Positions 1,830 through 22,528 of a stretch of 64,000 bases of DNA are shown piece after piece. The stretch spans positions 1 to 64,000 of the forward strand of contig CALKOM010000022.1 of assembly GCA_938091905.1 (NCBI GenBank). Reading direction: 5' to 3'. The position numbers and the translations under genes were made by a program. Origin of the DNA: an uncultured Verrucomicrobiales bacterium (GTDB lineage Bacteria > Verrucomicrobiota > Verrucomicrobiia > Verrucomicrobiales > DEV007). The notes below the pieces were generated by a model. It saw only the letters and a list, made by a program, of their open reading frames with translations. It did not search any database and was not told the origin of the DNA. Position 1 is the first letter of the stretch, and each line of letters begins with the position of its first letter.

Positions 1830-1840
1830 TTCGGGAGCCT

Positions 1841-4205: not shown

Positions 4206-4560
4206 TCGGCTTAATCGCTTTCTGCGCGACGATGGCGTGCCGCACGAGATCTGTAAAGTTCGAGTCTCAGAGTTTCACACACCAATCAACCTAGCAATCC
4301 GGCTACCCAGCTATTTCGGCAGTCGTCGCAGAATAAAGTGACTTGATGAAGCAAGTCGCCGGTCTCGATCGAAATCAAATTAAACAAAAGACCAAAAACG
4401 AAACCGACCTTACAAACACGTGAATACTCGAAACCGTTCCAAACCCGCAGAGGGACCTCATTGGAATACCGCCCTCTACTAAGAAGCGCTATCCTGAAGG
4501 TTGCCAGGCTTCCGCTTCAGATCGCCAGCATGAGTGTAAATTGGCGCTTTCTTCAAACAA

Positions 4561-5937: not shown

Positions 5938-6033
5938 GGAGCCATGCTGATGCGTATGGTGAGAAATAGGAAGCGTTATCGCCAGACAGTGCCAACTCTG
6001 CTCACTGTATTACCTCTCAAGATCACCCACATT

Positions 6034-6419
6034 CTAGAGGCGGCGAAGATCTAGAAACTGCAGCACGGCAAAGACAAGGACGATGTCTGCATTGGCGATG
6101 AACATTCAATTTTTCCCAGCCAAAAGAAGACCGAGCGATATGATCAGAATGCTCCCGATAACCCAAGCAAGGTCAAGACCAACGGCGATGGAAGCTTTCA
6201 ACGCATTCACCGTCTCGAGAATCGAGGCGGCCAACAGTCCAATCGCGAAAACAATCAACGAAAGGCCGATTCCAAGAATCACGATGGATTGCGAGAAGCC
6301 TGCGAAGGACGCAATGGACTGATGGGCGACCGCGAAGGTAAGACCTGAACAAAAGAGAAGACGGTATTTCTTTTTAAGCTCAAGCAAAGCAGGATAGTGT
6401 TTGTATTTGAAGTATTCAT
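6034..6419 (-). pseudogene. Decayed small integral membrane protein gene
   Basis: ATG 6419 gives MNTSNTNTILLCLSLKRNTVFS, then a frameshift into FCSGLTF...DLAWVIGS. After an internal TGA at 6106-6108 the hydrophobic frame continues MFIANADIVLVFAVLQFLDLRRL to TAG 6034. Confidence 0.6.
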
Positions 6420-6461
6420 GCAACTTCGTGTGATGATGTTATTAAGGAGAGTATTAGAAAT

Positions 6462-7105
6462 TTAGGTCGCGATGGTGTCCAATCGATTGGCAATGGCCGT
6501 TCTCGTTAGGGTGAAGGCCCGGGAGTCATCCAGAAGTTGCTAAACTCCATTCGCCTCTTGGACGAATGCAAGGAATTCGAAGACAAGCTGCCTAGCACTC
6601 ACGTCCTGAGACAGCTCGTTCCGCTCTTACGCTTGCCGCGTCTCGTCTTCCAACGCATTGATTTACCGCTTTGTTAGAGAAGCAATCTGCTCGCGGACCA
6701 GTCCAGGTCGACCATCGAATTCGGTGGAAGCTGCGGCAAAGAAGCCCCCCTTCGAAACACATTGCTTCCCGCGTAGGTGAACCAGAGTTCGACCATGACT
6801 CTCAATCGTTTGATTCCTGCCTCAATCTTCGAGGCAGGTTCCACGATCGCCTCGATAAAGATGTCGCAGGCCGTATCGATGGTCGCCAACAGGAGATCCA
6901 CCTTCGCCCCAAAGTGGGCGAAAAGGCGGCACTTGCTCATCGAGACCTCCTTCGCAAGCCGAGCAATCGTCAGTCCTTCCGGACCTTCCGCCGAGGCGAT
7001 GTTGTTGGTCTGCTTGAGGATCCCGCGGCGCGTCCGCCCCCCAACGGTCTCTCGGGCCTTGGGACCACCAAGTTTCGTTGGACCGTTCACCGCCCATAAA
7101 AGCAT
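6462..7105 (-). pseudogene. TetR-family transcriptional regulator pseudogene
   Basis: HTH region EGLTIARLAKEVSMSKCRLFAHFGAK. Frameshift near 6750 into GGFFAAASTEFDGRPGLVRE, then three in-frame stops (TAA, TAA, TAG) before the C-terminus ...AIANRLDTIAT* at 6462. Confidence 0.8.
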
Positions 7106-7248
7106 GAGCGTTCGTTTTAATTAAACGCTATTTCAACTCGAATCAGATCATGCAAAGACCTGACAGGAGGCTTCAACGTGCCCAACCTTTGATACCTTCG
7201 TTCCCTCCTGTTCAACCCCACTACCAATCCTCTGATTGGTAACTTCGC

Positions 7249-8682
7249 CTAGCCGAAGATCTCGGTCAGCGGACTACCACTATCGACAATAGGCATAGGG
7301 CGGCCTTCGCGATTGGGAAGAAACAAATCGGGATCGATGCCTAAAGCCCAGTAGATCGTCTTAGCCAAGTCCTCAGGGCTCACGGGATTCTCGGTTGGAT
7401 ACGCGGCATGGTCGTCCGTCTTGCCGTAAACAATGCCTCCTCGGACTCCGGCACCAGCAATGAGACAAGGGAAACAGGTGCTCCAATGTCCGCGGCCCCA
7501 GTTGGGTTCACCCTTCGGCGTGCGCCCCATCTCGCCCATGGCAACGACCAAGGTTTCGTCTAACAAACCACGCTCGTCTAGATCTTCTAAAAGCGCAGCA
7601 CAGCCCTGATCAAAAGTCGGCAACAAGTGCTTCTGCACGTCGTCGCTGTTGCGATGTGAGTCCCAACTGTAGCCGTCTACGCAATCATAGTGCACGGTCG
7701 TGAAGCGCACACCAGCCTCGACCAAACGACGCGCCATGAGGCACGATTGCCCAAATAGATGTCGCCCGTAGCGGTCACGTAGCTTTGGCGATTCGCGATC
7801 GATTTGGAACGCATTGCCTGCTTTGTCTGAGGATACCAGTGCTAGGGCACGCTGCCGATTGCGATCCAGGGTATCCGCTTGTCCTGAATCTAATTTTCGC
7901 TGTAAGGCTTCAAACTGATCTAGCAGGGAACTGCGCGTCTGAATGCGTCCGATATCCAACTCAGGGGACAAGCCCTCGATCTTAAAGGTTAATTCGTCAT
8001 CGGTGCAATCGCGCCAATACGGATTGTCATCAGCATCGCGTTTATTGATCGCTGTCGTGAGTGGATTGTAGGCATTTCCTAACCAACCTCCAAATTGACC
8101 GGGACGCCGGTACTGCCCCTGATCTTGCAGGCGGCCTAACCAATTGGGGAGTGCTGCGTAAGCGGGCATCGGAGCTCCTCGATTCGCCTTGTTCTGTTGG
8201 CTAAGGTATTCAACGACCGATCCCATAGACGGCCAATCCTGCGGCGTGGCCACGAAGCCACCACCGATGGGGATCTGCCAACGCTTACCCGTTTGGATGT
8301 AGTGAGCAGCGCCGCTGTGATCGTTGTAATCGTGGGTCATGCTACGGATGACCGCAAACTTGTCAGAGATCTTGGCCAGGCGATGCAGATGGTCGCTAAT
8401 CAGGAGATCGGGTGTACGGCAAGCAATTGGCTTAAACGGTCCGCGAATCTCTTGCGGCGCTTCCGGTTTCATGTCGAACGTTTCAAGCTGACTCGGACCA
8501 CCAAAGAGAAACATGAAGATCACAGACTTGGCCTTGGCGCCAGCAAACGGCGTTTGAGCTTGCTCCGCAGCAAGGAGTCCTGGCAAATTCAATCCTAACA
8601 AACCAGCGCCGCCGACCTGTAGAAGCTCGCGCCGCGAGATGCCAGCACAGGATCGCTTTGGAAGGCCATTTACCGTGATCAT
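7249..8682 (-). CDS. DUF1501 domain protein (PVC-typical)
   Basis: SRRELLQVG leader, FLFGGPSQLETFDMKP, CLMARRLVEAGVRF, WDSH and GEMGRTP...GRGHW motifs. Start taken at ATG 8682. Confidence 0.9.
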   Translation of the reverse strand: MITVNGLPKRSCAGISRRELLQVGGAGLLGLNLPGLLAAEQAQTPFAGAKAKSVIFMFLFGGPSQLETFDMKPEAPQEIRGPFKPIACRTPDLLISDHLHRLAKISDKFAVIRSMTHDYNDHSGAAHYIQTGKRWQIPIGGGFVATPQDWPSMGSVVEYLSQQNKANRGAPMPAYAALPNWLGRLQDQGQYRRPGQFGGWLGNAYNPLTTAINKRDADDNPYWRDCTDDELTFKIEGLSPELDIGRIQTRSSLLDQFEALQRKLDSGQADTLDRNRQRALALVSSDKAGNAFQIDRESPKLRDRYGRHLFGQSCLMARRLVEAGVRFTTVHYDCVDGYSWDSHRNSDDVQKHLLPTFDQGCAALLEDLDERGLLDETLVVAMGEMGRTPKGEPNWGRGHWSTCFPCLIAGAGVRGGIVYGKTDDHAAYPTENPVSPEDLAKTIYWALGIDPDLFLPNREGRPMPIVDSGSPLTEIFG

Positions 8683-9477
8683 AGTAGAAAGATGATGCCA
8701 CGAAAGACCAATCAATCAAGATATCCTGCAACCTGGCAGTTTCTATGCCGACGCCGCCAGGCTATCGATGCCCTGAAGCGCATCTGAGGAGCAGACGATC
8801 CACGGGTGGCACAAACCGCCATCGCTGTCATGTCGAACGATCAGCCACCTCACTCTTCAGGAAAGCTGCCACCCACTTCGTAAGCCATTACCTGGATCTC
8901 TGAAGAGACGACCTTGCTCTATGAGTTGGCGTCACAGGTCCGCTAGTAAGCGCATGCTCTCGTTCCTTGATCATATTAACAGCATGGTGATTTGACGACT
9001 CCATATGATCACCAAAGCGAAAGCGTGGTGTCGTCCATAACATTCCCGTCAATCTGTATGGAGAATTCCTAGAGATGGGCCCTTTCCAGTTCCGCGGTCT
9101 TACCAAGGCTCTGAACTTGCTCCTCTAACAACTAATATCGCTCCTATGCGGCCTTCTACGGGATATGACCAACACCACTTTGGCTAGGCCTGGCAGGACG
9201 ACTAACATCATGGAAAGGGCGTTTGTCTCAAGGAAGCCGCTTCCAACACAATGATGCTGGGCCTGGCGAAAGAGCCCGCTGCGGCAACTGCTCAAAGTCG
9301 CCAAGGCTCGCTTTTACAGGGCTTACGCATGAAGGATATGGACGCCAAAACGAGGGGTTTCGGGTATTTCTGAACTCCTGGTAATGCCCATTCAATGCAC
9401 TTTCTGATAATTTCCATACTAGAGAAGTGCCATCAAATATACCTGCTCAGTTCTTGCGTAAGCCCGGTCGCCTTTAG

Positions 9478-9640
9478 CCTAAAAACGGCAACGGGACCCC
9501 TGAAATACTAGTAAAGCGTTGATTTTCAACGATTCTCGATTGCTCGGCAATGAACCCTGAGGATGACAACTACCTGGTGCTCAGGGGCCTGCAAATCAAG
9601 GGTGGCGCGCTGTTGCGCTGATTCCATCGCAGTTTTTAGG
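9478..9640. mobile_element. 163-bp MITE-like non-autonomous IS derivative
   Basis: Terminal inverted repeats CCTAAAAACGGCAACGGGA (9478-9496) and the reverse complement of 9622-9640 (CCTAAAAACTGCGATGGAA) match at 15/19. Flanked on both sides by direct repeat TTTAG (9473-9477, 9641-9645). Confidence 0.75.
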
Positions 9641-9738
9641 TTTAGCACCCAAACGCTCTCGTAAATGAGATTTAGATTCTATAAAAGATGCAAATACGGC
9701 TGTTCGCCATAAATAATTCTAAGTTTATCATAATATTC

Positions 9739-12700
9739 ATGCCCCAAAAATCTCCTATCGCCGTCATTGGACTCGGCTGCCGCTTTCCTGGCAGTCCGGG
9801 GCCGGAAGCGCTCTGGGACCGGCTGGCTGCTGGGGAGGACTTGGTGACACGGTGGCCTAAGGAGCGGTGGGATCTTCTGCGCCCCTTCTTCCCCCACCTC
9901 CCCGCCTACGATCCTGACGATGCTCCGTGGGGAGGTTTCATCGAGGACATCGACCGCTTTGATGCGGACCTCTTTAGAATGACTCCCCGGGAAGCCAAAG
10001 CGTTAGATCCACAGCAACGCCTTCTGTTAGAAATCGCCTGGGAGGCCTTTGAAGACGCCGGACAGGGGCCAAATGACCTTTCAGGATCCAGAACCGGAGT
10101 GTTTCTCGGCATGTCCAGCCACAACTATGGTGTGACGTCCTACAACCGAGCTGAGACTGATCTCTATACAACGACGGGCACGAGCAATGCAGTCGCCGCA
10201 AACAGACTGTCCTACCAGTGGAACCTGCGAGGACCGAGCATGACCATCGACACTGCCTGCTCCTCTTCACTCGTCGCCGTTCATCTCGCCTGCAGGAGCC
10301 TGTGGTCCGGAGAATCCACAGCGTCTTTGGCCGGCGGCGTTTCGTTGATGCTTCTACCACAAGTCACTCAGAGCTTCGCCTCGGCGGGGTTCATGGCAAG
10401 TGACGGCCGTTGCAAGGCCTTCGACGCGCGGGCCGATGGCTATGTGCGCGGTGAAGGCACGGGGTTGGTTCTCCTGAAACTCCTGCCAACGGCCATCGCC
10501 GATGGCGATCGCATTCACTGCGTCATTCGAGGTACGGCGATGAACCAGGACGGCCGCAGCAACGGCCTGACAGCCCCTAACCGACACGCTCAATCTCAAC
10601 TTCTCCGAGACGCTTATGAAGATGCGGGTATGGAGTCCTCTGAGGTGGACTACATCGAAGCCCACGGAACGGGAACGAAACTCGGAGATCCCATGGAAGC
10701 GAAGGCTCTCGCGGAAGCGTTGGGGACAGCACGGCGAACAGATCGTCCATGTCTCGTCGGTGCCATCAAGACTAACATAGGCCATCTCGAAGCCGCTGCG
10801 GGAATCGCTGGGCTCATCAAGACTGTCCTGGCCATACGCCATCAGCGGATTCCATCCAATCTTCACTATCAGTCTCCCAATCCTCTCATCCCCTTTGATT
10901 CGCTAGCCCTCAAAGTGCCGACCCGTCTAACACCGTGGCCAAACACCGCTCAACCAGCCCGAGCCGGGGTGAGTGCCTTTGGCTTCGGGGGTACCAATGC
11001 CCACGTCGTGCTTGAACAAGCTCCTGCCCCCTCAATTCCTCAGTACACTGACGACCGTGCTTCCACTCATCCTCACATTCTCACGCTGAACGCGCGTACA
11101 CCCGATGCCCTCAATTCGTTAGCACGCCGCTACGTCAACCATTTCGAGCGACATCAAGAAATATCCGTGGCAGATGCCGCTTACACTTCCCAGGTTGGAA
11201 GGGCAGCTCTACGATACAGGACGAGCCTGACAGCGAGAAGCCGCGAGGAGATGCTGGCGAAACTGAAGGAGACCGCGATGTCTTCGACATCCAAGAAGAG
11301 CGCCGTCACTCCCTCGCCCTCCGTCGCCTTTCTGTTCACAGGCCAGGGCGCCCAGTATCATCGAATGGGTCTGGCACTCTACAAAACTCAATCAGTTTTC
11401 CGCCAGCAGATGGATGCCTGTGCCAAGGCTCTTTCCGAATCTCTTGAGATCCCGCTAATTGACATCCTCAGGGGCGCGGGCAATGACCCGATCCTGTTGG
11501 ACCAGACCAACTACACACAACCAGCCCTCTTTGCCCTGGAACTCTCCTTGGCCCGGCTCTGGATTTCTTGGGGAATCCAGCCGGACTATTTGTTAGGGCA
11601 CAGCCTCGGCGAATACGTGGCAGCGACGCTCGCCGGAGTCTTTTCTGAGCGGGATGGAATTCGACTGATCGCAGCACGGGGGCGCCTTATGGCCGCGCTA
11701 CCTCAAAACGGGAGCATGGCTGTGGCTGAGACCGACGCAGAATGGGTAAAAGCACAGATCAAAGAGGAAAGCGATTCTGTTGCCATAGCAGCAATTAACG
11801 CGCCTGACCAAGTCGTCCTCTCCGGCGAGCAAGAGGCGATGGACAATCTGATTGCCTCCATTCGGAACGCCGGCCACAAGGTCAGACCGCTCCAAGTTTC
11901 CCATGCCTTTCATTCTCCGCTCATGGAACCCATGCTCGGAGAGTTTGAAGAGATCGTCCGCTCAACCCAGCTTTATCCTCCAGACAACGGGCTTAAGCTC
12001 ATTTCAAATCTCACCGGTAGGTTCGTCGGCGACGAAATTGCCCAACCGGAGTATTGGTGCCAGCAAATTCGGAACACGGTCCGATTTGCCGAGAGCGTCC
12101 GCTCCCTCGAAAAGTGTCAGTGCGACGTCTTTCTGGAGATTGGACCACACGCCATCCTCAATCCACTCGTGACCCGAAACCTCTCTGAGGAACCTTCAGG
12201 AAACAGCCCACTCTATGTCCAAAGTCTAATCAAAGGAGAGGACGATTCCCGCGTCATGCATGAATCTCTTGGGGCCCTTCACGATCGGGGGTGCCAGGTT
12301 GAGTGGGCAGCACTCCATCAGGGCAAGCCTCGGTCCCGCATCGAATTGCCCACATACCCCTTTCAGCGGTCTTCATTCTGGATCGATCCGGGGCCAGTGC
12401 CAGCCAGTTCTCTTCAGGCAAATCACGCGAAGGACTACTACGAACTCTCCTGGGAAGAACAGGAGCTTCATCAAGTAGTAAACGGCGCGCCAGTACGATG
12501 GTTTCTGCTTCTAGATGACAAAGGAGTGGGGCAAGCTCTGGCAAAACAACTGCGTATAACCGCGCCGGGCGACGACGTCATTATTATCCGCCGAGGTCTT
12601 CAGTGCCAACAAGTCTCCGAAGACCACTGGACCATCCGTCCGGGGAATGTCGACGATATCTGTACCTTGCTGAGCCATTGGAAGACCAAGCCTGACATTA

Positions 12701-15090
12701 AGTTCCATCATTTCGTCCATCTTTGGTCTCTGGACGCACCTGCCTTAGCCAAAGGTTTCGCCCCGACGCAAGCGGCGAAGTCCCTCACCTGTCAAAGCAT
12801 CCTCGCCTTGGTTCGCGCCTTGTCGACGACCCAGACCAAGATGGAAGACCACACTAACCTGCGGATCTCCATCGTCACCCAGGGAGCGGCTCCACTGGGC
12901 GACAATGCACCACCAGTCAGCAGCCTTACCCAATATTTCGCACGCGGTCTGGGCAAGAGCCTAGCCCTGGAACACCCTGAGTGGTGGCACGGAATGATCG
13001 ACCTTGAAGAGCATCGCTCTAGCAAAGGCACGCCCATTCAAGGCCTGACTGAGGCTCTGCGCTCAGAATCTCCGTGCCAGGAGTTGGCCCTTCGAAACGG
13101 CCTCTGCTTTGCGACACGCCTGAAACATCAGAAACTGACACCATCTCCATCTCCCAACCCGATCCATTTCCAGTCGCCCGCGACCTATCTTGTGACCGGA
13201 GGGTTTGGCGGCCTGGGCTCCGAAGTGCTCCCACGCCTCCACCGAATCGGGCTGGACCATCTCACCGTCCTGGGACGCCGTCCCGCTGACGACCCCTACG
13301 TGGTCGAGCGACTTGCAGCCCTCTCGCGTTTGGGAGCGAAGATTCTCTACCAATCTGTTGATGTGAGTGACCTTCAGGCGCTCCGGGCTTGCATGAACAG
13401 CGTGATCACGATCCACGAACTCACTATCAAAGGCATTGTTCATGCCGCTGGGATGACGGGAGTCGAAAGCGCGAAAGACATGGATTGGACTACGTTCGAC
13501 TCTGCGCTCCACGCGAAGGGCGACGGTGCCTGGCATCTTCACACTCTGTCCCAAGAACTGAGCCTGCCCCTAGACAACTTCATTCTCTTCTCCTCCATCG
13601 CAGGAACGTGGGGCTCCAAGGGACAGACTCACTACTCGGCCGCGAATCATTTCCTCGATGGTCTGGCGCACTACCGAAGATCACAAGGCTTACCGGCGAT
13701 CAGCATTGCATGGGGGCCATGGGAAGCCAACGGCATGGCCTCCGAGAGCTTCCGAGAGCGCCTGGAAAGTTTAGGTATCCGATCGCTTTCAACAGCTCAG
13801 GCCCTTGACTGGTTGGAATGCGCTCTCACAAAGAATCACACACCGGAACTCCCTCCCGTCCCCGTAGTAGTCGAAGCGGACTGGAATCAGGTTGCAGCTA
13901 GTTTCAGAGCTCAGGGCAGCGGCCAGATGTTCGAACACTTAACGGACACTAGCACGACACCAGCGTGTTTCTCTCCTATACCAACAGATGCCCAAGCGTT
14001 GGAGCCCGAGGTGAGACAAATCTGGCAAGACTGTCTCCAGGTTGATCCAATTGACCTGGACGACAGTTTCTTTGATCTTGGCGGCGACTCTATGGTCAGC
14101 ACCAGTCTGTTCGTTCAGATTCGAACGCGATGGGGAATGGAAATGTCAGGCAGCGCTCTCCTACGGGCACCGACATTACGCCAATTCTGTCAGGAAATTC
14201 TCTTGGCGCACCGAAGCGGTGCCGTGGGAAACGAGACCAAAGTCAATTCCGTGGTGACCATTCGGAAAGGGAAGAACGGAGAGATGCCATTCTTCTGGAT
14301 TCACGCCATTGGCGGAGGTGACGGGATAGGGTTTGTCCGCTTTCACGGACTTTTTGATGATTTATCAGACCGTATGGGTGGCACCTGCTATGGCCTTCGC
14401 AGCCATGCAGAGCCCTTCGAAACTGTCGAAGCGATGGCACGCCAGTTCATCGAAGACATGCGAGTCGTTCATCCCACCGGGCCCTACGCATTGGGAGCCT
14501 ACTGCACCTCGGGGGTGGTAGCCTATGAAATGGCCCGTCAACTTTCCGAGGCGGGCGAAGAGGTAAGTGCTCTCTTCATGATCGATACTCCTCCAGCGGT
14601 ATCCGCTTCCAAACCATCCATGGCGAGGAGGTTTCTCGGACTCTGTCAAAACACTCCTCACTGGCTCTTTGACAACGCCAGGTCAGGCCCCACCCGCCTC
14701 GCACGGAAGATCGGCCGCGGCGGCACGATTGCCAAGCGTAAGATCGGCCAGCGCTTGGGCATGACCTCACGCCCATCCATTGAGCTGTCCGATGTCATCG
14801 ACATGGAACGCTACCCCGTCGCTTCGAGAAAATACGCAGAAGCGCACTGGCGCGCCTACCGATCCTATCAACCGGAAGGCTATCGCGGAACCCTGACACT
14901 CTTTATTCCAAAAATCCGCAGCCTGCTTTGGTCCGATAGCGTGTCAGCTTGGAGATCATTCGCTCCGAGTGGTATGGAAGTGGAAGTCATTCCCGGCAAC
15001 CACTCATCGATGCTCGAATCTCCTCACGTAGACGAATTGGTATCCCGCATGCGCCGCCGAATTCGCAGATCCGAGGCACCCCCCGTTTAA
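9739..15090 (+). CDS. Single-module type I polyketide synthase KS-AT-KR-carrier-TE
   Basis: KS: DTACSSS, HGTGT, HLEAAAG. AT: GHSLG, HAFH (malonyl type). KR: TGGFGGLG, SSIAGTWGSKGQTHYSAAN. Carrier: FFDLGGDS. TE: GPYALGAYCTSG...IPGNH. No DH or ER motifs seen. Start probably ATG 9739 (the track gives 9688). Confidence 0.95.
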   Translation: MPQKSPIAVIGLGCRFPGSPGPEALWDRLAAGEDLVTRWPKERWDLLRPFFPHLPAYDPDDAPWGGFIEDIDRFDADLFRMTPREAKALDPQQRLLLEIAWEAFEDAGQGPNDLSGSRTGVFLGMSSHNYGVTSYNRAETDLYTTTGTSNAVAANRLSYQWNLRGPSMTIDTACSSSLVAVHLACRSLWSGESTASLAGGVSLMLLPQVTQSFASAGFMASDGRCKAFDARADGYVRGEGTGLVLLKLLPTAIADGDRIHCVIRGTAMNQDGRSNGLTAPNRHAQSQLLRDAYEDAGMESSEVDYIEAHGTGTKLGDPMEAKALAEALGTARRTDRPCLVGAIKTNIGHLEAAAGIAGLIKTVLAIRHQRIPSNLHYQSPNPLIPFDSLALKVPTRLTPWPNTAQPARAGVSAFGFGGTNAHVVLEQAPAPSIPQYTDDRASTHPHILTLNARTPDALNSLARRYVNHFERHQEISVADAAYTSQVGRAALRYRTSLTARSREEMLAKLKETAMSSTSKKSAVTPSPSVAFLFTGQGAQYHRMGLALYKTQSVFRQQMDACAKALSESLEIPLIDILRGAGNDPILLDQTNYTQPALFALELSLARLWISWGIQPDYLLGHSLGEYVAATLAGVFSERDGIRLIAARGRLMAALPQNGSMAVAETDAEWVKAQIKEESDSVAIAAINAPDQVVLSGEQEAMDNLIASIRNAGHKVRPLQVSHAFHSPLMEPMLGEFEEIVRSTQLYPPDNGLKLISNLTGRFVGDEIAQPEYWCQQIRNTVRFAESVRSLEKCQCDVFLEIGPHAILNPLVTRNLSEEPSGNSPLYVQSLIKGEDDSRVMHESLGALHDRGCQVEWAALHQGKPRSRIELPTYPFQRSSFWIDPGPVPASSLQANHAKDYYELSWEEQELHQVVNGAPVRWFLLLDDKGVGQALAKQLRITAPGDDVIIIRRGLQCQQVSEDHWTIRPGNVDDICTLLSHWKTKPDIKFHHFVHLWSLDAPALAKGFAPTQAAKSLTCQSILALVRALSTTQTKMEDHTNLRISIVTQGAAPLGDNAPPVSSLTQYFARGLGKSLALEHPEWWHGMIDLEEHRSSKGTPIQGLTEALRSESPCQELALRNGLCFATRLKHQKLTPSPSPNPIHFQSPATYLVTGGFGGLGSEVLPRLHRIGLDHLTVLGRRPADDPYVVERLAALSRLGAKILYQSVDVSDLQALRACMNSVITIHELTIKGIVHAAGMTGVESAKDMDWTTFDSALHAKGDGAWHLHTLSQELSLPLDNFILFSSIAGTWGSKGQTHYSAANHFLDGLAHYRRSQGLPAISIAWGPWEANGMASESFRERLESLGIRSLSTAQALDWLECALTKNHTPELPPVPVVVEADWNQVAASFRAQGSGQMFEHLTDTSTTPACFSPIPTDAQALEPEVRQIWQDCLQVDPIDLDDSFFDLGGDSMVSTSLFVQIRTRWGMEMSGSALLRAPTLRQFCQEILLAHRSGAVGNETKVNSVVTIRKGKNGEMPFFWIHAIGGGDGIGFVRFHGLFDDLSDRMGGTCYGLRSHAEPFETVEAMARQFIEDMRVVHPTGPYALGAYCTSGVVAYEMARQLSEAGEEVSALFMIDTPPAVSASKPSMARRFLGLCQNTPHWLFDNARSGPTRLARKIGRGGTIAKRKIGQRLGMTSRPSIELSDVIDMERYPVASRKYAEAHWRAYRSYQPEGYRGTLTLFIPKIRSLLWSDSVSAWRSFAPSGMEVEVIPGNHSSMLESPHVDELVSRMRRRIRRSEAPPV

Positions 15091-15096
15091 AAACAC

Positions 15097-16905
15097 ATGA
15101 ACCCGGCCCAAACTATTGTCGACATTCTCCGCATTCACGCCTCGCGGAATCCAGATCGCCTTATCTATCAGTTTCTCAGGGACGGCGAGATCATATCCTC
15201 AACACTAACTTGCGGCGAAATCTTGCAGAAAGCCACAGCCGTTGCGGATCAGCTCCACTTCCACGGAATCAATCGCGGAGAGCGCGCCCTATTGGTTTAT
15301 CCCTCTGGTCCGGAATTTGTCATCTCCCTTCTAGGCTGTATGGCAGCGGGTGTCATCGCAGTACCAGCCTCCGCTCCCCGTCCACGACGCCACGACGAGC
15401 GGCTGGAGAGGATCGTCAGAGACGCAGAAGTGTCCGCGATCCTCACAAGCGAAACGCTTGTCGACGATCTTCAAACGCGGATGGTGGATTCTTGGAGAGA
15501 CGGGGCAGCCCCCCGCCTCATCACCCCAAACCAGCAAGAGTCACCAAGCCCATCGACCTCCATGCCCAACCTCGGCTCGGGCGACATAGCGTTCTTACAA
15601 TACACCTCCGGCTCCACAGGCAAACCCAAGGGAGTCATGGTGTCGCACGGAAACATACTGAATAATCTATCATACATCGAAACCGCATTTCAGTTAGTTC
15701 CATCTGAAACGGTGTCGGTCACGTGGCTTCCCAGCTTCCATGACATGGGCCTAATCGACGGCCTCTTGGAGCCCCTCTACCTCTCTTGCCCTGGCATTAT
15801 CATGCCACCTGCCGCGTTCCTTCAGAAGCCAGTCCGGTGGCTTCAGGCGATCTCGAACTTTCGAGGCACTCACAGCGGAGGGCCCAACTTCGCCTACCAG
15901 TTATGCGCCCGCATCAATGAGAACCAGAGAGAAACCCTGGACCTGAGTAGCTGGACGACTGCCTACAGTGGTGCCGAGCCCGTCCGAGAATTGACCATTC
16001 GTCAGTTCTCCGAGGTCTTTCGTCCTCAAGGATTCCAGAAGCGCTACTTCTACCCCTGCTACGGCCTGGCTGAAAACACCTTGATGGTTTCCGGTGGCAT
16101 GGCCGATACCCCTCCAGTAGCTCTCCAATTCCACACGCAATCACTACTGCGAGGGCAGGCTCAATTGGCACATAGTGGAGAGGAACCAAGCACGACCTTG
16201 GTGAGCTCAGGCAAAGTGTGGCTGGACACCGACCTTCGCATCGTCAATCCCAAAAACTGCCGAGAATGCACACCCGGCGAGATCGGGGAGGTTTGGGTGA
16301 AGGGCTCGAGCGCAGGACAGGGTTATTGGCAAGACTCGGCTAGAACCGATGAAACATTTAAGGCGCAATTGGAGAAACTGAATGGCTGTCTTGACGGTCC
16401 CTTCCTACGTACCGGGGATCTTGGGTTCCTTTGGGATGGTGAACTCTTCGTGGCCGGGCGCCTTAAAGACGTCATTATCATCAAGGGACACAATCACTAT
16501 CCTCAGGACATCGAGGCGAGCGTCGAGGAGTGTCATCCGTCTCTCCGTCCGGCAGCCTGCGCCGCCTTCTCCGCTCAGGATGGCACTGACGAAAGGCTGG
16601 TCCTGGCCGTCGAAGTAGAACGGACGGCCCTCCGGTCGTTCGACGAGAAATCGGTCTTCGCCGCCATCCGGCGTGTCGTTTCTGAGAACCATGATCTCTC
16701 GGTTTCCGCAATCTGTCTGCTTCGGCCTGGGAGTATCCCCAAGACCTCAAGTGGGAAGATCCAGCGGCACCGGTGTCTACAAGCCTTCCTTTCCAATCAA
16801 CTCCGCAGCGTCGCCTCATGGTGTAGGTCTAACATCACCCCAGAGAATCAACTTGTTCGTCTTAGTGACCATGAATTCTTCCTACAGCCCAGCATTAAAT
16901 CCTAA
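15097..16905 (+). CDS. Fatty acyl-AMP ligase (FAAL)
   Basis: FLQYTSGSTGKPKGV, WLPSFHDMGLI, YGLAE followed by a FAAL-type insertion, LRTGDLGF, NHYPQDIE, IPKTSSGKIQR. Confidence 0.92.
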   Translation: MNPAQTIVDILRIHASRNPDRLIYQFLRDGEIISSTLTCGEILQKATAVADQLHFHGINRGERALLVYPSGPEFVISLLGCMAAGVIAVPASAPRPRRHDERLERIVRDAEVSAILTSETLVDDLQTRMVDSWRDGAAPRLITPNQQESPSPSTSMPNLGSGDIAFLQYTSGSTGKPKGVMVSHGNILNNLSYIETAFQLVPSETVSVTWLPSFHDMGLIDGLLEPLYLSCPGIIMPPAAFLQKPVRWLQAISNFRGTHSGGPNFAYQLCARINENQRETLDLSSWTTAYSGAEPVRELTIRQFSEVFRPQGFQKRYFYPCYGLAENTLMVSGGMADTPPVALQFHTQSLLRGQAQLAHSGEEPSTTLVSSGKVWLDTDLRIVNPKNCRECTPGEIGEVWVKGSSAGQGYWQDSARTDETFKAQLEKLNGCLDGPFLRTGDLGFLWDGELFVAGRLKDVIIIKGHNHYPQDIEASVEECHPSLRPAACAAFSAQDGTDERLVLAVEVERTALRSFDEKSVFAAIRRVVSENHDLSVSAICLLRPGSIPKTSSGKIQRHRCLQAFLSNQLRSVASWCRSNITPENQLVRLSDHEFFLQPSIKS

Positions 16906-16917
16906 CGATTTCCCACA

Positions 16918-17187
16918 GTGAGCATAAACACTCCCCCCACGGCTCGAGAGATCCAAGACTGGTTCTTACCGAAATTAGCCAATGCGCTAGACCTCCCTAT
17001 AGAAGAAATAGAGCTGGATACCTCCTTTGCCGAGTATGGTCTGGATTCTTCCGTCGCTCTCGGCCTAACTGGCGAACTCAGTGACTGGCTCCAGGCCCCG
17101 TTGGAGGCCACCACCCTCTGGGACTATCCCAATATCAAAACCCTTGCGGCCAGCCTAGCCAGGCTCGAAGCGGAGTCCTCGGGCTAA
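16918..17187 (+). CDS. Stand-alone acyl carrier protein
   Basis: 89 aa, acidic; FAEYGLDS phosphopantetheine site and LWDYPNI motif typical of FAAL-partner ACPs. Confidence 0.92.
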   Translation: MSINTPPTAREIQDWFLPKLANALDLPIEEIELDTSFAEYGLDSSVALGLTGELSDWLQAPLEATTLWDYPNIKTLAASLARLEAESSG

Positions 17188-17199
17188 AACAAACGAACC

Positions 17200-18450
17200 A
17201 TGCCTGAATCAGCCCCCCTATCCAGTTCACTTCGATTCAATCCGTTGAGCGAAGAATTTCAGGAAAACCCCTATCCCTACTATCAACGTCTACGCGAAGA
17301 GGATCCGGTTCATCGAAGCTGGAGCTTCCAACCCGAATGGATTCTAACCCGCTACGACGATGTCCGCCGCGTGCTCCTCGACCGAGAAGTCTTCGCAGTC
17401 GAGAAACTAGATCAAAAGCTGCGGGCCAAGAACCGCCTTCTCGCCGCTGAGGGCAAAGATCTCAACAGTCTCGTGAACGTCACAAGCGGTTGGCTTCTAT
17501 TCATCGATCCTCCGAACCATACGCGCCTCCGCAGCTTGGTCATCAGAGCTTTCACCCCACGAGTCGTGGAGGACATCGCCCCACAGATTCAGGATATCGT
17601 CACCGGGTTGATCGACGCCTTCGCCGGGGACCAAGAAGTGGACGTCGTCAGAGGCCTAGCCAGTCCGCTTCCGGTAATCGTGATCGCCACGATGCTAGGA
17701 CTCCCCATTGAGGATCAGGAAAGACTGAAACATTGGGCAGAAACAATGTTTCGAGTGGTCGATCAGCTCCACACACTGGACGGCTACGTTGAAATGGAGA
17801 CCTCGGCTCGGGAGTTCGGCTCCTATCTGAGAGAATTAATAGAGAAACGGGAAAATCACCCGCCACGCAAGGATCTCCTAGGAGCCCTCTTGTCCGCTCG
17901 CGACAAAGATGATCGCCTGAGTCACGACGAGATCATTAGCTTCACGATGTTGCTCTTCAGCGCTGGCGAGGAAACCACTCTCAATCTCATCGGCAACGGA
18001 TTACATGCCCTCTTACATCATCCTCAGGCCTATCGCCAATGGCAGCAAGAGCCTAAACTCACCAACTCTGCAGTGGAGGAATTCCTTCGCTTCGACAGCC
18101 CCGTGCAGTTGATCTCCCGTGTCGCAGTCAGCGACCTTCAGCTTAATGGCAAGATGATCAAGGCTGGTGATCGCGTCGTGGCCTGCCTGGGCGCCGCCAA
18201 CCGGGACCCAAAGCAATTCTCCCGTCCTGATCACCTCGACCTCGCTCGTGCAGACAACCGCCACCTCGCCTTTGGCGGCGGCCTGCATCATTGCGTGGGA
18301 GCGCCCCTCGCCCGTCTTGAGGGCCAGATCGCCCTTCGTTCATTGTTAGACCGATTCCCAGATATGACCCTCGTGCCCAATAGCGTAATACGCCGCCCGA
18401 ACCGGGCCTTGCGCGGTCTCTCACAGCTGATCGTGCGTTTGGTTCCCTAA
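17200..18450 (+). CDS. Cytochrome P450 (CYP107/BioI-like architecture)
   Basis: DPPNHTRLR, I-helix AGEETT, EEFLRFDSP (ExxR), AANRDP and heme ligand FGGGLHHCVG. Confidence 0.95.
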   Translation: MPESAPLSSSLRFNPLSEEFQENPYPYYQRLREEDPVHRSWSFQPEWILTRYDDVRRVLLDREVFAVEKLDQKLRAKNRLLAAEGKDLNSLVNVTSGWLLFIDPPNHTRLRSLVIRAFTPRVVEDIAPQIQDIVTGLIDAFAGDQEVDVVRGLASPLPVIVIATMLGLPIEDQERLKHWAETMFRVVDQLHTLDGYVEMETSAREFGSYLRELIEKRENHPPRKDLLGALLSARDKDDRLSHDEIISFTMLLFSAGEETTLNLIGNGLHALLHHPQAYRQWQQEPKLTNSAVEEFLRFDSPVQLISRVAVSDLQLNGKMIKAGDRVVACLGAANRDPKQFSRPDHLDLARADNRHLAFGGGLHHCVGAPLARLEGQIALRSLLDRFPDMTLVPNSVIRRPNRALRGLSQLIVRLVP

Positions 18451-18556
18451 CGCAAAGCAAGCCTCCTTTCGCAGCGAAGGCCCCCGAGAGATCTGGGCAT
18501 AGTCCTCAATATGGCTTCAGCAGGGCAAAGGCAACGACAACGCCGCCCTGCAACGA

Positions 18557-19072
18557 TCACGTCCAGCTCCGGCGGAGGCGGACTATCAACGGCTGAGCGA
18601 AGAGGTAGAGCCCGCTTACTAGCATCACAAGTAGGACAACGGCTGAAGGGAGGAAGATCCAAAGTTTAGCCAAGGGGTGGAAGAAACTTCCGTCGTGAAT
18701 CGACTCGATCAGATCGGATCTGCGATAAGCCGTCTGGAGGACCTCGCCTGTGGCCAAGTCGACCTGCACTTCCCAACCGTTGTGGCTCTTCACTTTGACG
18801 ACACCTTTCGAAGCGCGCACATCGAGTCGCTCGATGTCGTCCCAGCTGGTGATCGCAGCCGCCTCGACACTGGCGGCCGCATTGTAGATCTCTTCGAAAC
18901 CAATGGTCGGCAACTTGCTGCTACCATTGATTGTGTCTGGCTGAATCCAGGCAAACTCTTTCTTGAGGAGGAGCAGAACACCTGTGCCAATGACAACTAG
19001 CAGAGGTACTGCTACGAGGAGCGAGGCCCAGTAGTGCGTCCTACGAGCCAAGCGCTTCCATGAAAAGTTCAT
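18557..19072 (-). CDS. PepSY-associated TM helix domain protein
   Basis: RRTHYW plus TM helix at N-terminus; IESIHDGSFF plus TM helix with SGLYL at C-terminus. Confidence 0.8.
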   Translation of the reverse strand: MNFSWKRLARRTHYWASLLVAVPLLVVIGTGVLLLLKKEFAWIQPDTINGSSKLPTIGFEEIYNAAASVEAAAITSWDDIERLDVRASKGVVKVKSHNGWEVQVDLATGEVLQTAYRRSDLIESIHDGSFFHPLAKLWIFLPSAVVLLVMLVSGLYLFAQPLIVRLRRSWT

Positions 19073-19075
19073 GAA

Positions 19076-22000
19076 CTATGGCTTGGGCAGCGGTCGACCA
19101 GATGTCCAGGGCACGTTGGCCGCGTCCAATCTCTTGTGAAGGGCTGGGAGATCTTCTTCGAGGAGTGTGGTCAGGGCCCCTCCACGTTCCTCGAACTGAT
19201 CCTTCGCAATCTGAAACTGCTCCCGACTTGTTGTCGTCGGGCCGTAGATGGATCCAGATCCAGAATTCGCCACTCGCAGTCGCGAGCCAATCGATGGCTC
19301 TGATTCCACGTCGTGTTTGGATTTGATACGATCACCCGTGAAGAGTTCCCTGAAGTCCATGAGCTTCAGCTCCAAGGCTCGGGTTTCGTCATAGAGTTCC
19401 GTGTAAAGTTCTGTGTCGGAAAGCTTCAGTCTATTGATCTCTCGTTTGATGTCTGCGAGCTGGTTGATGACATCGTTAGCAGCACGATCTGCTGTATTCA
19501 CCTCACGCCGCAGCTTGCTAATCGTTTCGTAGTAGGCAACCCGCGTGACAGAATCAGATTCAGACAAGGTGCTCTCTTCATCGATACTCACGACTTCAAC
19601 CTCTTGGGGATTACCGACTGCCTTGCTTTCCCCGTCTACGATCTTCGTTGCGGCGATCGTGTACCTACCGGGTTGAACCAAGGGTCCACCATTGGTGAAC
19701 GTGTTGTTTCGATACCTCAAATCCCAGGTAACTCGATGAATGCCCGCGCCTGTTGGACCTTCAAATCGACTGATGACATCTCCCAACCCATCTGTAACCG
19801 TAAACCGAAGTGAAGCCCCCTTCTTCTCTTCGCGTCCTTCTTCCTTGAGGACATCCCAGCCTGGGTAGGTATTGTCGCCGCCTGCTTTCTTCACTTTGCG
19901 CTCCTTCTCCAAACGCACCTGTTTCTTGGTCTTCACTTCCATGGCATCACGGTTGTAATAGGTGATCATCGCTCCCACCGGAGGGTTGCTCGCAGAGAAG
20001 AACTTGTCTCCCTGGTACCCCTTGCGACCACCAATACCATAATGGGGCACATAGCGGTAAGTCTTGCGAATTGGGTAGATGATCAATTCCTCTTTCTCGA
20101 AAGCTTCGTCGCCAACTTCTCGTAGGAAACTGTAGTCATCGAACACGTAGAAACTACGTCCAAAGGTCGCACCGACGAGGTCGTTCTCGCGACGCTGAAT
20201 CTCGATATCCCGGAAAGGAATGGTGGGCACATTACCCGTCAGTTTCACCCAATTGGCCCCGCCATTAATGGTAAAGAAGACGCCAAACTCGGTGCCCAGG
20301 AAGAGGAGATCAGCTTTCTCATGATCCTGATTGATACGCCAAACGAGATGCTTGTTAGGAAGGTCCCCTACAATGGAACTCCAAGTCTGGCCCCGATCCG
20401 TGCTCTTGAATACATAGGGCTTGTAGTCGCCCGTCTTGTGATGATCAAATGTTGCATAGACGGTATCGGCGTCATGGAGATCAGCTTTGATGTCATTGAC
20501 AAACGCATATTGAGGAAGATCGAAGAGGCGCTCGACTTTGCGCCAATTCTCCCCACCATCCTCCGTGATCTGAATCAAGCCATCGTCGGTCCCGACATAG
20601 ATCAGCCCTTCAACAAGGGGCGATTCCGAGACCGACGTGATGTTGCTGTACTGCGACATGGCGTAGGTATCGTAGAGCCCAAGATCCAGGCTCCAGACGC
20701 GATCCATGTGCTTCAACTTGTAGCGATCAACGTTGCGCGAGAGGTCGGGACTAATGGCTTCCCAGGAGTCGCCGCGATCATCGCTGCGATAAAGCTTCTT
20801 GGAACCATGATAGATCCGAGTATTCGAATGAGGGCTGATGAGAATGGGCGCGTCCCAGTTGTAACGAAGGCCATCTTCGCCCTTGCCTGGTTGTGGGCGG
20901 ATACTAATAGAGTTCCCCGTCACACGATCCACACGGCGCAGGTAGCCTTGCTGAGACTCGCCATAGATCACGTTGGGATCCGTCGGATCAATGGCACAGT
21001 CGTGTCCGTCGCCACCGATGATCGGGCGCCAATCTCCGTTTAGGATTCCCGAATTGCTACGAGTGCGGCTGGGGCCATACTGCGTGTTATTGTCCTGCGT
21101 GCCGCCGACGATGTTGTAGAACGGGTAGTCATTGTCCACGTCGACCTTGTAGAACTGGGTGAGCGGTAGGTTCGGAAAGTACTCGTAAGTCTTGCCGCGA
21201 TCATAGGAACGATAGAGACCGCCATCGCAACCGACCAAGAGGAAATCCGGATCGGTCGGATGAAACACCACAGCATGATTGTCGACGTGCTTGTTAGTGC
21301 CATCGGCAGAACGCCAGTTCTTTCCGCCATCTTCACTATAGCCGAGGTAGACATTGGCTTGATAGATGGAATCAAACCGATGGGGATCCACGTAGATCTC
21401 TTGGTAATAGTGGGGACCTGTGCCGCCGCTAATGTAGTCGCTTCGCTTTTGCCAGCTCTTGCCGCTGTCTTCCGATCTCCAGAAACCACCTTTCTTTCCG
21501 GCCAACTCGATGGTGGCATAGACAACTTCAGGACGCTGCGGTGAGATCTGGAGGGAGATCTTGCCCTTGTCTTCCCCGGGCAGACCTTTCGTGAGTGCGT
21601 TCCACGACTTTCCACCATCGATCGATTTGAAAATGCCCGTCTCAGGACCTCCATTCACGATCCCCCACACCGTGCGATGCCTCTGATGCGTCGCTGCGTA
21701 GAGCACTTCTGGCTGACTCGGGTGCATCACAACATCCGTAACGCCAGTATATTCACCTTTTGACAGAATAAGCTTCCACGACTTGCCGCCATCGATTGTC
21801 TTGTAGAGACCGCGTTCGCCACCACCTGACCACAGTGGCCCTTGCGAAGCCACATAGACGACGTCCGAGTTCTCTGGGTGAACGATGATCTTGGAAAGAT
21901 GTTCGCTCTTTGGTAGGCCGACATTTTTAAAACTGCCACCCCCGTCGGTGCTCTTATAGATGCCATCGCCGAACCCGACATGACGCCCTCCAACGTTCTC

Positions 22001-22357
22001 TCCTGTGCCGACCCAAATGATATCGGTGTTAGAAGGATCCACTGCAAGGCACCCGATCGAGTAGGAGCCGTAGTTTTCAAAGATCGGTTTCCACGTCGTG
22101 CCGGCATTGGTTGTCTTCCAGACATTTCCTGAACCGGCGGCAACATACCAAGTGTGAGGCTTCTCTGGATCGATGGCAATGTCGGCGATCCTTCCAGACA
22201 TGAGCGCTGGTCCAATGCTCCGCAGCTTGATGCCCGAAAGCAACTTTGAGGTCAGCTTCTTGGGCGCCTCCTTCTCGTCGTCATCAGCAAGAGCCTGGAC
22301 AGAAAAACTGAGCGAAAGAATGAGGGCAGAAAGCCATTTAGATGCCAGTATATTCAT
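19076..22357 (-). CDS. Secreted VPS10/BNR (Asp-box) beta-propeller glycosyl hydrolase-like protein
   Basis: Signal peptide, RSIGPALMSGRI, and many S/TxDGGxxW Asp-box repeats. Start taken at ATG 22357. Confidence 0.85.
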   Translation of the reverse strand: MNILASKWLSALILSLSFSVQALADDDEKEAPKKLTSKLLSGIKLRSIGPALMSGRIADIAIDPEKPHTWYVAAGSGNVWKTTNAGTTWKPIFENYGSYSIGCLAVDPSNTDIIWVGTGENVGGRHVGFGDGIYKSTDGGGSFKNVGLPKSEHLSKIIVHPENSDVVYVASQGPLWSGGGERGLYKTIDGGKSWKLILSKGEYTGVTDVVMHPSQPEVLYAATHQRHRTVWGIVNGGPETGIFKSIDGGKSWNALTKGLPGEDKGKISLQISPQRPEVVYATIELAGKKGGFWRSEDSGKSWQKRSDYISGGTGPHYYQEIYVDPHRFDSIYQANVYLGYSEDGGKNWRSADGTNKHVDNHAVVFHPTDPDFLLVGCDGGLYRSYDRGKTYEYFPNLPLTQFYKVDVDNDYPFYNIVGGTQDNNTQYGPSRTRSNSGILNGDWRPIIGGDGHDCAIDPTDPNVIYGESQQGYLRRVDRVTGNSISIRPQPGKGEDGLRYNWDAPILISPHSNTRIYHGSKKLYRSDDRGDSWEAISPDLSRNVDRYKLKHMDRVWSLDLGLYDTYAMSQYSNITSVSESPLVEGLIYVGTDDGLIQITEDGGENWRKVERLFDLPQYAFVNDIKADLHDADTVYATFDHHKTGDYKPYVFKSTDRGQTWSSIVGDLPNKHLVWRINQDHEKADLLFLGTEFGVFFTINGGANWVKLTGNVPTIPFRDIEIQRRENDLVGATFGRSFYVFDDYSFLREVGDEAFEKEELIIYPIRKTYRYVPHYGIGGRKGYQGDKFFSASNPPVGAMITYYNRDAMEVKTKKQVRLEKERKVKKAGGDNTYPGWDVLKEEGREEKKGASLRFTVTDGLGDVISRFEGPTGAGIHRVTWDLRYRNNTFTNGGPLVQPGRYTIAATKIVDGESKAVGNPQEVEVVSIDEESTLSESDSVTRVAYYETISKLRREVNTADRAANDVINQLADIKREINRLKLSDTELYTELYDETRALELKLMDFRELFTGDRIKSKHDVESEPSIGSRLRVANSGSGSIYGPTTTSREQFQIAKDQFEERGGALTTLLEEDLPALHKRLDAANVPWTSGRPLPKP

Positions 22358-22528
22358 AATCTTTAGAATAAACCATATCCTTAGCAATTGCACGGCGGCA
22401 ATGCAACTTCGAAATCATGGAGTCGTGGTCGCTTAAACTGGGATGACAGGCTTCAACGACATTGAGAGCGCAACCGAAGCGGAGAGAGGATACCTTGAAC
22501 CTGGGACCCAGATTGCTAGCCTCCGAGG

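Follow-up and report, generated by a model that had tools for sequence, protein, structure and literature searches.

A 64,000-nucleotide stretch of DNA from an uncultured Verrucomicrobiales bacterium (GTDB lineage DEV007; positions 1 to 64,000 of contig CALKOM010000022.1), referred to below as the window, carries a compact cassette of four genes that encode one type I polyketide synthase (PKS), one fatty acyl-AMP ligase (FAAL), one acyl carrier protein (ACP) and one cytochrome P450. We consider that this cassette probably constitutes a self-contained route in which a fatty acid primes a single PKS module and is converted into a small oxygenated lipid. All of the parts come from known families, and there is precedent for PKS modules that are primed by a FAAL and equipped with tailoring P450s. 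What is unusual is the thioesterase (TE), which has a Cys nucleophile, is of the type found in nonribosomal peptide synthetases (NRPSs) and sits directly on a PKS module; the occurrence of elongating and non-elongating versions of the cassette as a natural pair; and the host lineage.

Organization of the cassette

Open reading frame (ORF) analysis places the four genes on the + strand in the order PKS, FAAL, ACP, P450, separated by 6, 12 and 12 bp. The PKS contains ketosynthase (KS), acyltransferase (AT), ketoreductase (KR), ACP and TE domains. The features are as follows.

9739..15090, +, type I PKS, single module KS-AT-KR-ACP-TE, 1783 aa (Pfam, NCBIfam)
9751..11013, +, KS domain; Cys-His-His triad intact (DTACSSS, EAHGTGT, NIGHLE)
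11329..12282, +, AT domain; GHSLGE and HAFH motifs
12436..13725, +, KR, structural and catalytic halves (Pfam KR at residues 1165-1346; NCBIfam KR prefix at 917-996)
14008..14196, +, integrated ACP domain (Pfam PP-binding; GGDS)
14293..15057, +, TE domain; Cys nucleophile codon 14503-14505 (GAYCTSG), Asp of MIDTPP, His of GNHSS
15097..16905, +, FAAL (Pfam AMP-binding and DIP2-like C-domain); stop codon TAA at 16903-16905
16918..17187, +, free-standing loading ACP (PP-binding; LDSS, Ser codon 17047-17049); GTG start
17200..18450, +, CYP107-like cytochrome P450 (Pfam p450); heme Cys codon 18292-18294

The PKS reading frame is open from 9688, and the public protein record of 1783 aa fits a start at 9739. 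A first-pass annotation of this DNA had described four co-directional genes 6–12 bp apart with intact catalytic motifs, and a PKS of KS-AT-KR-carrier-TE order without dehydratase (DH), enoylreductase (ER) or sulfotransferase. The gap lengths, the motifs read in the translations and the Pfam domain assignments all bear this out: Pfam finds no DH, ER or sulfotransferase in the PKS, a scan of 20 neighbouring ORFs likewise gave no sulfotransferase, and the approximately 32 residues between the integrated ACP (1441-1503) and the TE (from 1536) hold no sulfotransferase domain, so that the inventory is that of an olefin synthase minus its sulfotransferase. HAFH is characteristic of malonyl-type ATs, and a Trp without LDD of A-type KRs. 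The KR translation shows GGFGGLG and YSAAN, a Trp eight residues N-terminal of the Tyr, and no LDD. The motifs behind the earlier assignment of a malonyl AT and an A-type KR are therefore present, and both types are predicted from these motifs. An Sfp-like phosphopantetheinyl transferase is encoded in the genome.

The FAAL and the free ACP share one reading frame, which is interrupted by a single TAA and four codons (16903-16917); in a sister genus (g5) and in Nostoc, FAAL-ACP is one fused protein. A contig from an independent metagenome of the same species (L088) is 99.2% identical to the window over 20.9 kb, with 28 differences in the four genes (8,712 bp). It retains the TAA, and all four ORFs are intact. 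Full-length cassette proteins are also on record from many contigs. The four-gene set is therefore not a chance arrangement, because it is intact at this level of identity in an independent contig and its proteins are recorded from many others.

An NRPS-type Cys thioesterase on a PKS module

In HMMER alignments, the Cys of the TE motif GAYCTSG falls at the position of the Ser of GYSMGG in PDB 7r0x, named in the Foldseek listing as the oocydin branching TE, and of the Cys of GWCFGG in AB3403 (4zxh). It is invariant in both orthologues from the sister genus (LGAYCSSG). A search with the TE region gave 43 proteins at E<=1e-10, of which 15 have Cys at this position, including all seven best non-self matches; five of those seven are plain C-A-T-TE (condensation-adenylation-thiolation-TE) NRPSs according to their Pfam lists. 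A profile search was then exhaustive over 1.84 billion representative proteins, with counts taken from the 150 best. Among these the nucleophile is Cys in 97, Ser in 50, Gly in two and Ala in one. Only seven of the 150 contain a KS, four of them with Cys. One of these four is the sister-genus orthologue and the other three have the TE C-terminal to an NRPS adenylation domain (architectures were scanned for 10 proteins). Among the 150 best representatives, a Cys-TE that directly terminates a PKS module is thus found in this lineage only. On its closest relatives we classify the TE as an NRPS-type Cys-TE sitting immediately behind a PKS module, and as a member of a mostly-Cys clade of NRPS TEs rather than of the CurM/Ols kind. 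The CurM TE is absent from the 30 PDB matches at E<=0.01.

The Asp of the presumed triad lies after the strand that follows the nucleophile, where the MIDT of MIDTPP aligns with the MIDT of AB3403, that is, at the canonical position. According to the portions of PMC6668435 and PMC11298585 available to us, AB3403 retains its Asp at this usual position, whereas in ObiF and SulM, Cys-TEs that form β-lactones and β-lactams, the Asp has moved to another strand and the canonical site is Gly; the same portions link Cys nucleophiles to non-hydrolytic release in the few TEs studied. The TE was modelled with AlphaFold from an alignment of 10 sequences (pLDDT 77, pTM 0.78). The best Foldseek matches of this model are the Pks13 TE (rank 1, 1.6e-13, TM 0.62), the human FAS TE, AB3403 and the NocB TE. 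ObiF is absent both from the 30 PDB sequence matches and from the Foldseek matches listed (to rank 50, with gaps). A literature search for TEs with Cys instead of Ser in polyketide systems found no report.

The nearest non-orthologous relatives of the TE (P0315-P0319) are NRPSs that each have two TE-like stretches, some of them internal in proteins of 3700-4500 aa, which reflects either an odd architecture or fused gene calls.

A non-elongating variant in a sister genus

Two genomes of the sister genus (G009 and G046) carry an orthologous cassette (L008 3743-11275; L005 12074-19614) whose PKS is only 1398 aa long, with the domains KS-AT-ACP-TE and no KR. In its KS the His of HGTGT is replaced by Gln (EAQGTAT), giving a KS0; in its AT the active site reads GFG[TA]GE, with loss of the Ser, and HAFH is gone, giving an AT0. 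Nevertheless, comparison of the two genomes gives omega values of 0.11 (KS), 0.16 (AT), 0.19 (ACP) and 0.20 (TE), against 0.92 for the first 65 codons, which are probably not coding. The P450 is the best conserved of the four genes (62% identity to that of the window). The cassette lies in a different neighbourhood, among Big_9/reprolysin, leucine-rich repeat and DUF7133 genes. On these substitution ratios and motif losses we regard the g5 cassette as a non-elongating, non-reducing form that is kept by purifying selection together with its FAAL-ACP, P450 and Cys-TE.

Relatives of the FAAL, the P450 and the KS-AT

Among solved structures the FAAL is closest to 7R7E/F/G (E 1.5e-163), which the available portion of PMC11837247 describes as the FAAL domain of a PKS from Picosynechococcus PCC 7002. 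The PDB gives 18 matches at E<=1e-30, every one an adenylate-forming enzyme and most of them FAALs, the next being the Legionella FAAL, FadD23 and FadD32. Many loading FAALs of cyanobacterial and myxobacterial lipopeptide synthetases likewise share 45-50% identity with it. In NCBIfam, the free ACP matches the Pks13 N-terminal ACP best (5.7e-10). Ordinary cis-AT modules from Moorena, Okeania and myxobacteria share approximately 46-48% identity with the KS-AT region, and among full-length proteins outside its own cluster nothing is closer.

The P450 contains AGEETT (the I-helix acid-alcohol pair), EEFLR (EXXR) and FGGGLHHCVG (the heme Cys loop). It has 396 P450 matches in the PDB at E<=1e-20, led by PksS (2.9e-86) and by BioI, which binds acyl-ACP (1.8e-81); TamI and PikC come next. 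By its motifs and relatives it is classified as a class I, CYP107-like monooxygenase. We also weighed a C-C cleavage of the BioI type, which would yield pimeloyl-ACP, but rejected it: many CYP107 relatives besides BioI score similarly, and no biotin genes were found near the cassette.

Distribution and traces of expression

Verrucomicrobiales are common in sea water. A search for the P450 in 41 related genomes found one orthologue (G009, 62% identity) and none in the five genomes of the same genus. The P450 was then sought in one genome per species across 185,579 species, and 80 loci with P450 relatives were kept. Besides the window, a FAAL (>=44% identity), an ACP and a KS stand beside the P450 in only three of these 80: the Verrucomicrobiales metagenome-assembled genomes L008 and L045 (= G009), and Nostoc linckia FACHB-104 (L010). 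Five further loci have only a weak adenylate-enzyme match, with 25-33% identity. The TE profile, run against 401 Verrucomicrobiales genomes, matches some TE at E<=1e-20 in 62, and falls below 1e-150 only in G000, G009 and G046, the next best value being 3.3e-40; orthologues were thus detected in just three of the 401 genomes. A metagenome scan with the same profile gave three loci, namely L088 and two distant TEs, and no further variants of the cluster.

The 8.7 kb stretch is nearly complete in 14 DNA runs (marine, seawater, estuary, plankton and ballast water), and at least part of it is present in 20 rows from 15 studies; near-identical sequence comes from marine, seawater, estuary and ballast-water DNA of at least 10 studies. 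Four metatranscriptome runs from four studies contain 12, 10, 11 and 6 short contigs that match window positions 7000-20000, all with at least 95% identity and 32 of 39 with at least 99%. These fall within all four genes and are consistent with their transcription; they show presence only, so that uncovered parts and contig depth are uninformative.

A second megasynthase ORF, of 3634 aa and with a KS, is present in G000 (contig C52 42550-43323). Similarly long ORFs (about 3630-3740 aa) with a distantly related TE at their end recur across many genomes of the same family, and may represent a conserved family-wide PKS/NRPS.

Proposed pathway and alternatives

As its family suggests, the FAAL would adenylate a free fatty acid of medium or long chain length and load it onto the free ACP. 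The P450 would oxidise the alkyl chain, most likely while this is tethered to the ACP, by analogy with PuwI/PuwJ and BioI. On the basis of the motifs, the KS would then accept the acyl chain, the malonyl-type AT would charge the integrated ACP, a single condensation would add C2, and the A-type KR would give an L-3-hydroxyacyl-ACP. The first-pass annotation had likewise proposed one C2 extension to a 3-hydroxyacyl thioester, and this is the straightforward reading of the domains. Finally, the Cys-TE of NRPS ancestry would free the product.

How the product is released is suggested by the variant from the sister genus. We lean slightly towards a non-hydrolytic release, either lactonisation onto a hydroxyl of the chain or transfer to an acceptor, in preference to hydrolysis, because the g5 PKS has lost elongation and reduction and yet keeps the FAAL-ACP, the P450 and the Cys-TE under selection. 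The ATP spent in g5 on activating a free acid is best explained if release creates an ester or amide bond; otherwise, activation without extension would serve only to present the chain to the P450. Plain hydrolysis, giving a free hydroxylated 3-hydroxy (di- or trihydroxy) fatty acid that might be, for example, a building block or signal, is the default chemistry of TEs, and the human FAS TE, a long-acyl hydrolase, is among the best matches of the TE in both sequence and fold. We take it to be a serious competitor of lower probability. It would create a futile cycle in g5, from acid through ATP activation to hydroxy acid, unless the P450 strictly needs an ACP-tethered substrate, and the few Cys-TEs studied are tied to non-hydrolytic release in the available portions of PMC6668435 and PMC11298585. 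A more specific proposal, which we find attractive though unlikely, is a minimal lactone route, in which the grafted NRPS-type Cys-TE would close a macrolactone on a hydroxyl installed by the P450, or a β- or δ-lactone. Were this true, the g5 protein KS0-AT0-ACP-TE would be a case of a PKS scaffold retained solely to transfer and cyclise fatty acids oxidised by a P450, and a previously undescribed pathway from fatty acid through P450 to Cys-TE lactone would exist in abundant marine Verrucomicrobiales. Still less probable is a β-lactone synthase in which the TE would cyclise the PKS-made 3-hydroxyacyl thioester to a lipid β-lactone, as ObiF does in obafluorin biosynthesis. The Cys nucleophile, and a KR that should provide the 3-hydroxyl, fit such a reaction; however, the Asp of the TE is canonical as in AB3403, in contrast to its relocation in ObiF and SulM (in the available portions of the sources cited above), ObiF is absent from the sequence and fold matches listed, and the g5 orthologues keep the Cys-TE without a KR, an active KS or an active AT, and hence without a PKS-made 3-hydroxyl. 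Among the products suggested in the first-pass annotation, the β-lactone is therefore weakened by the Asp position and the KR-less orthologues, while a macrolactone or a dihydroxy acid is still compatible with the data.

CurM and Ols act on the hydroxyl configuration opposite to that produced by an A-type KR. This is one of several reasons why the product should not be a terminal alkene: an alkene made in the manner of an olefin synthase is very unlikely, and is the least probable of the alternatives. The domain order agrees except for the sulfotransferase, and the best solved relative of the FAAL comes from the PCC 7002 PKS. Nevertheless, the short ACP-TE linker leaves no sulfotransferase domain, the TE is not CurM-like, the KR is A-type, and the P450 has an ordinary O2-activating AGEETT helix and CYP107 relatives, unlike a CYP152 decarboxylase. 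The olefin-synthase-like character claimed in the first-pass annotation therefore holds for the domain inventory and the FAAL match to PCC 7002, but not as a specific kinship: the TE is NRPS-type, the KS-AT resembles ordinary cis-AT modules, and the FAAL is also similar to many lipopeptide loading FAALs. The domain list of Ols is that given in the available portion of PMC11837247. We give little credence to a condensase like Pks13/FadD32, in which two acyl chains would be joined and the TE would transfer the product to an acceptor. The match of the free ACP to the Pks13 N-terminal ACP, the first rank of the Pks13 TE in Foldseek, and the resemblance of g5 KS-AT-ACP-TE plus FAAL-ACP to the Pks13 architecture all point in this direction; against it, the NCBIfam Pks13 model scores only 750.9 bits against a cut-off of 2100, the AT is malonyl-type in the window and dead in g5, the g5 KS has no decarboxylation His, and the window PKS has a KR. 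It is just as improbable that the cassette is a decaying or silent remnant that makes no product, as might be suggested by the in-frame TAA that splits FAAL from ACP and by the lack of the cassette in close relatives. Every catalytic motif is intact, L088 keeps both the TAA and four intact ORFs with 28 differences over 8,712 bp, and the full-length proteins are recorded from many contigs.

Several observations weigh against the fatty-acid-primed route to an oxygenated lipid that we favour. The length of the chain, the position at which the P450 attacks it and the mode of release are all inferred. The FAAL has the curated NCBIfam FAAL family as its best match, but scores 471.7 bits against a cut-off of 775. 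The P450 is 44% identical to the PuwJ-like gene of Nostoc, compared with 43-48% to stand-alone P450s of Binatia, Deltaproteobacteria and Anaerolineae, and the neighbours of eight P450s in this 43-48% range are TetR, short-chain dehydrogenase/reductase (SDR) and unrelated genes, with no FAAL; by identity the P450 shows no special closeness to the Nostoc gene, so that the analogy between the cassettes is drawn from their gene order rather than from a clade shared by the P450s. The cassette encodes neither a ferredoxin nor a reductase. The in-frame TAA divides the FAAL from an ACP to which it is fused in relatives, and this ACP has no Met, so that its only start is the GTG at 16918, which has no obvious ribosome-binding site. 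Finally, the contigs from the RNA libraries possibly derive from contaminating DNA carried over into them.

Genomic context of the cassette

Compared with genome G003 of the same genus, the cassette is part of a clean insertion or deletion of 9.9 kb (window 8715-18596), which comprises the four genes and a non-coding leader of 1 kb. Besides the genes, the segment contains two features.

8716..9738, no strand, non-coding leader within the insert, GC content 0.495
18451..18596, no strand, right end of the insert; homology to G003 is back at 18597

DNA homology to G003 covers window positions 7243-8714 and then 18597-19073, the second stretch lying only 42 bp further on in G003; it resumes within the 3' end of a convergent PepSY_TM gene. 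The flanking genes, a DUF1501 gene (7249..8715) and a BNR/sortilin gene (19076..22393), are 91% identical to those of G003 at the protein level. The ends have no target-site duplication and no mobility gene, only two 8-bp repeats of a size expected by chance, and both gain and loss are possible. The GC content of the cassette genes is 0.566, against 0.55 for the whole window. The leader contains no notable ORF and Rfam gives no match at E<=1 across 8500-9900; around the cassette, no promoter or terminator signals exceed those in shuffled sequences.

Between the window and L088 there are 55 differences in 19000-19999, compared with 0-9 per kb elsewhere over 21 kb; this hot spot lies within the 3' part of the BNR/sortilin-like gene. 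The idea that the cassette is less diverged between strains than its flanks was rejected, because the 1 kb profile traced the effect to this hot spot at 19-20 kb.

Upstream, at 606-7105 on the minus strand, are genes for saccharopine-dehydrogenase-like, SDR and FMO-like flavin monooxygenase proteins and a TetR regulator, together with a weak neutral-ceramidase-like match below the cut-off. These redox- and lipid-like genes lie outside the insertion or deletion and are treated here as separate from the cassette.

Significance

The first-pass annotation did not recognise the gene set as a characterised pathway, and sequence, synteny and literature searches gave no characterised syntenic match. 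It overlooked that the TE nucleophile is Cys and that the FAAL-ACP-P450 trio follows a PuwI/PuwJ-type logic. The literature search found no characterised cluster of such composition and none of such a kind from Verrucomicrobiales; in the available portion of PMC12820801, FAAL clusters of Verrucomicrobia are mentioned only in a supplementary figure.

The coupling of a P450 to a FAAL-ACP starter and the capping of a PKS module by a Cys-TE are of enzymological interest, and the natural pair of variants could reveal what the Cys-TE and the P450 do alone. At 9.9 kb and four genes, the cassette is small enough to be expressed whole. What is likely to be gained is a new lipid, together with a clearer understanding of the rule that governs Cys-TE function, not a new biosynthetic principle.

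Comparison with known systems

The cassette resembles the Ols and CurM systems in that a FAAL and an ACP carry out loading, followed by KS-AT-KR-ACP and a TE. It differs in having no sulfotransferase, an NRPS-derived Cys-TE, an A-type KR and an extra P450, and in that the loading part is split into separate genes located downstream of the PKS.

A parallel in gene order is provided by PuwI/PuwJ, in which the P450 comes immediately after a FAAL-ACP that supplies a cis-AT PKS module. The FAAL, ACP and P450 of the window are respectively 47, 50 and 44% identical to those of a puw-type cassette in Nostoc linckia. The Nostoc contig that holds L010 is 265 kb long and has the order FAAL-ACP, P450, a KS-AT-DH-cMT-ER-KR-ACP PKS (cMT, C-methyltransferase), FAAL, ACP, an ORF of 461 aa and an aminotransferase PKS (KS-AT-ACP-aminotransferase-monooxygenase), after which come at least eight condensation domains. 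Judged by this architecture, with PuwB/PuwE-like PKSs and NRPSs, the Nostoc cluster is probably of the puwainaphycin/minutissamide type. The 461 aa ORF (L107 7-1389), flanked by the second FAAL-ACP and by the aminotransferase PKS, has no Pfam family; it may be the CylC-type halogenase PuwK. In the available portions of PMC9016887 and PMC10088813, PuwI and PuwC serve as alternative FAAL starters, PuwB and PuwE are described as PKSs, PuwJ as an oxygenase and PuwK as a halogenase, and the hydroxy or oxo substitution of C16-C18 acyl chains is assigned to PuwI/PuwJ. The window differs from this system in having no NRPS or aminotransferase module and a single PKS module that ends in a TE.

Pks13/FadD32 also has a FAAL that loads a carrier feeding a KS-AT-ACP-TE protein, and the fold of its TE is similar; by contrast, the window has a malonyl-type AT and a KR, and its PKS falls far under the cut-off of the Pks13 model. 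ObiF and SulM share the Cys nucleophile and a substrate with a β-heteroatom, whereas the Asp of the window TE is not relocated and there is no detectable sequence match or top fold match to them. AB3403 of Acinetobacter baumannii (4zxh) and other single-module C-A-T-TE NRPSs share both the Cys-TE and the canonical Asp (available portion of PMC11298585), with the difference that the TE described here ends a PKS module and not an NRPS.

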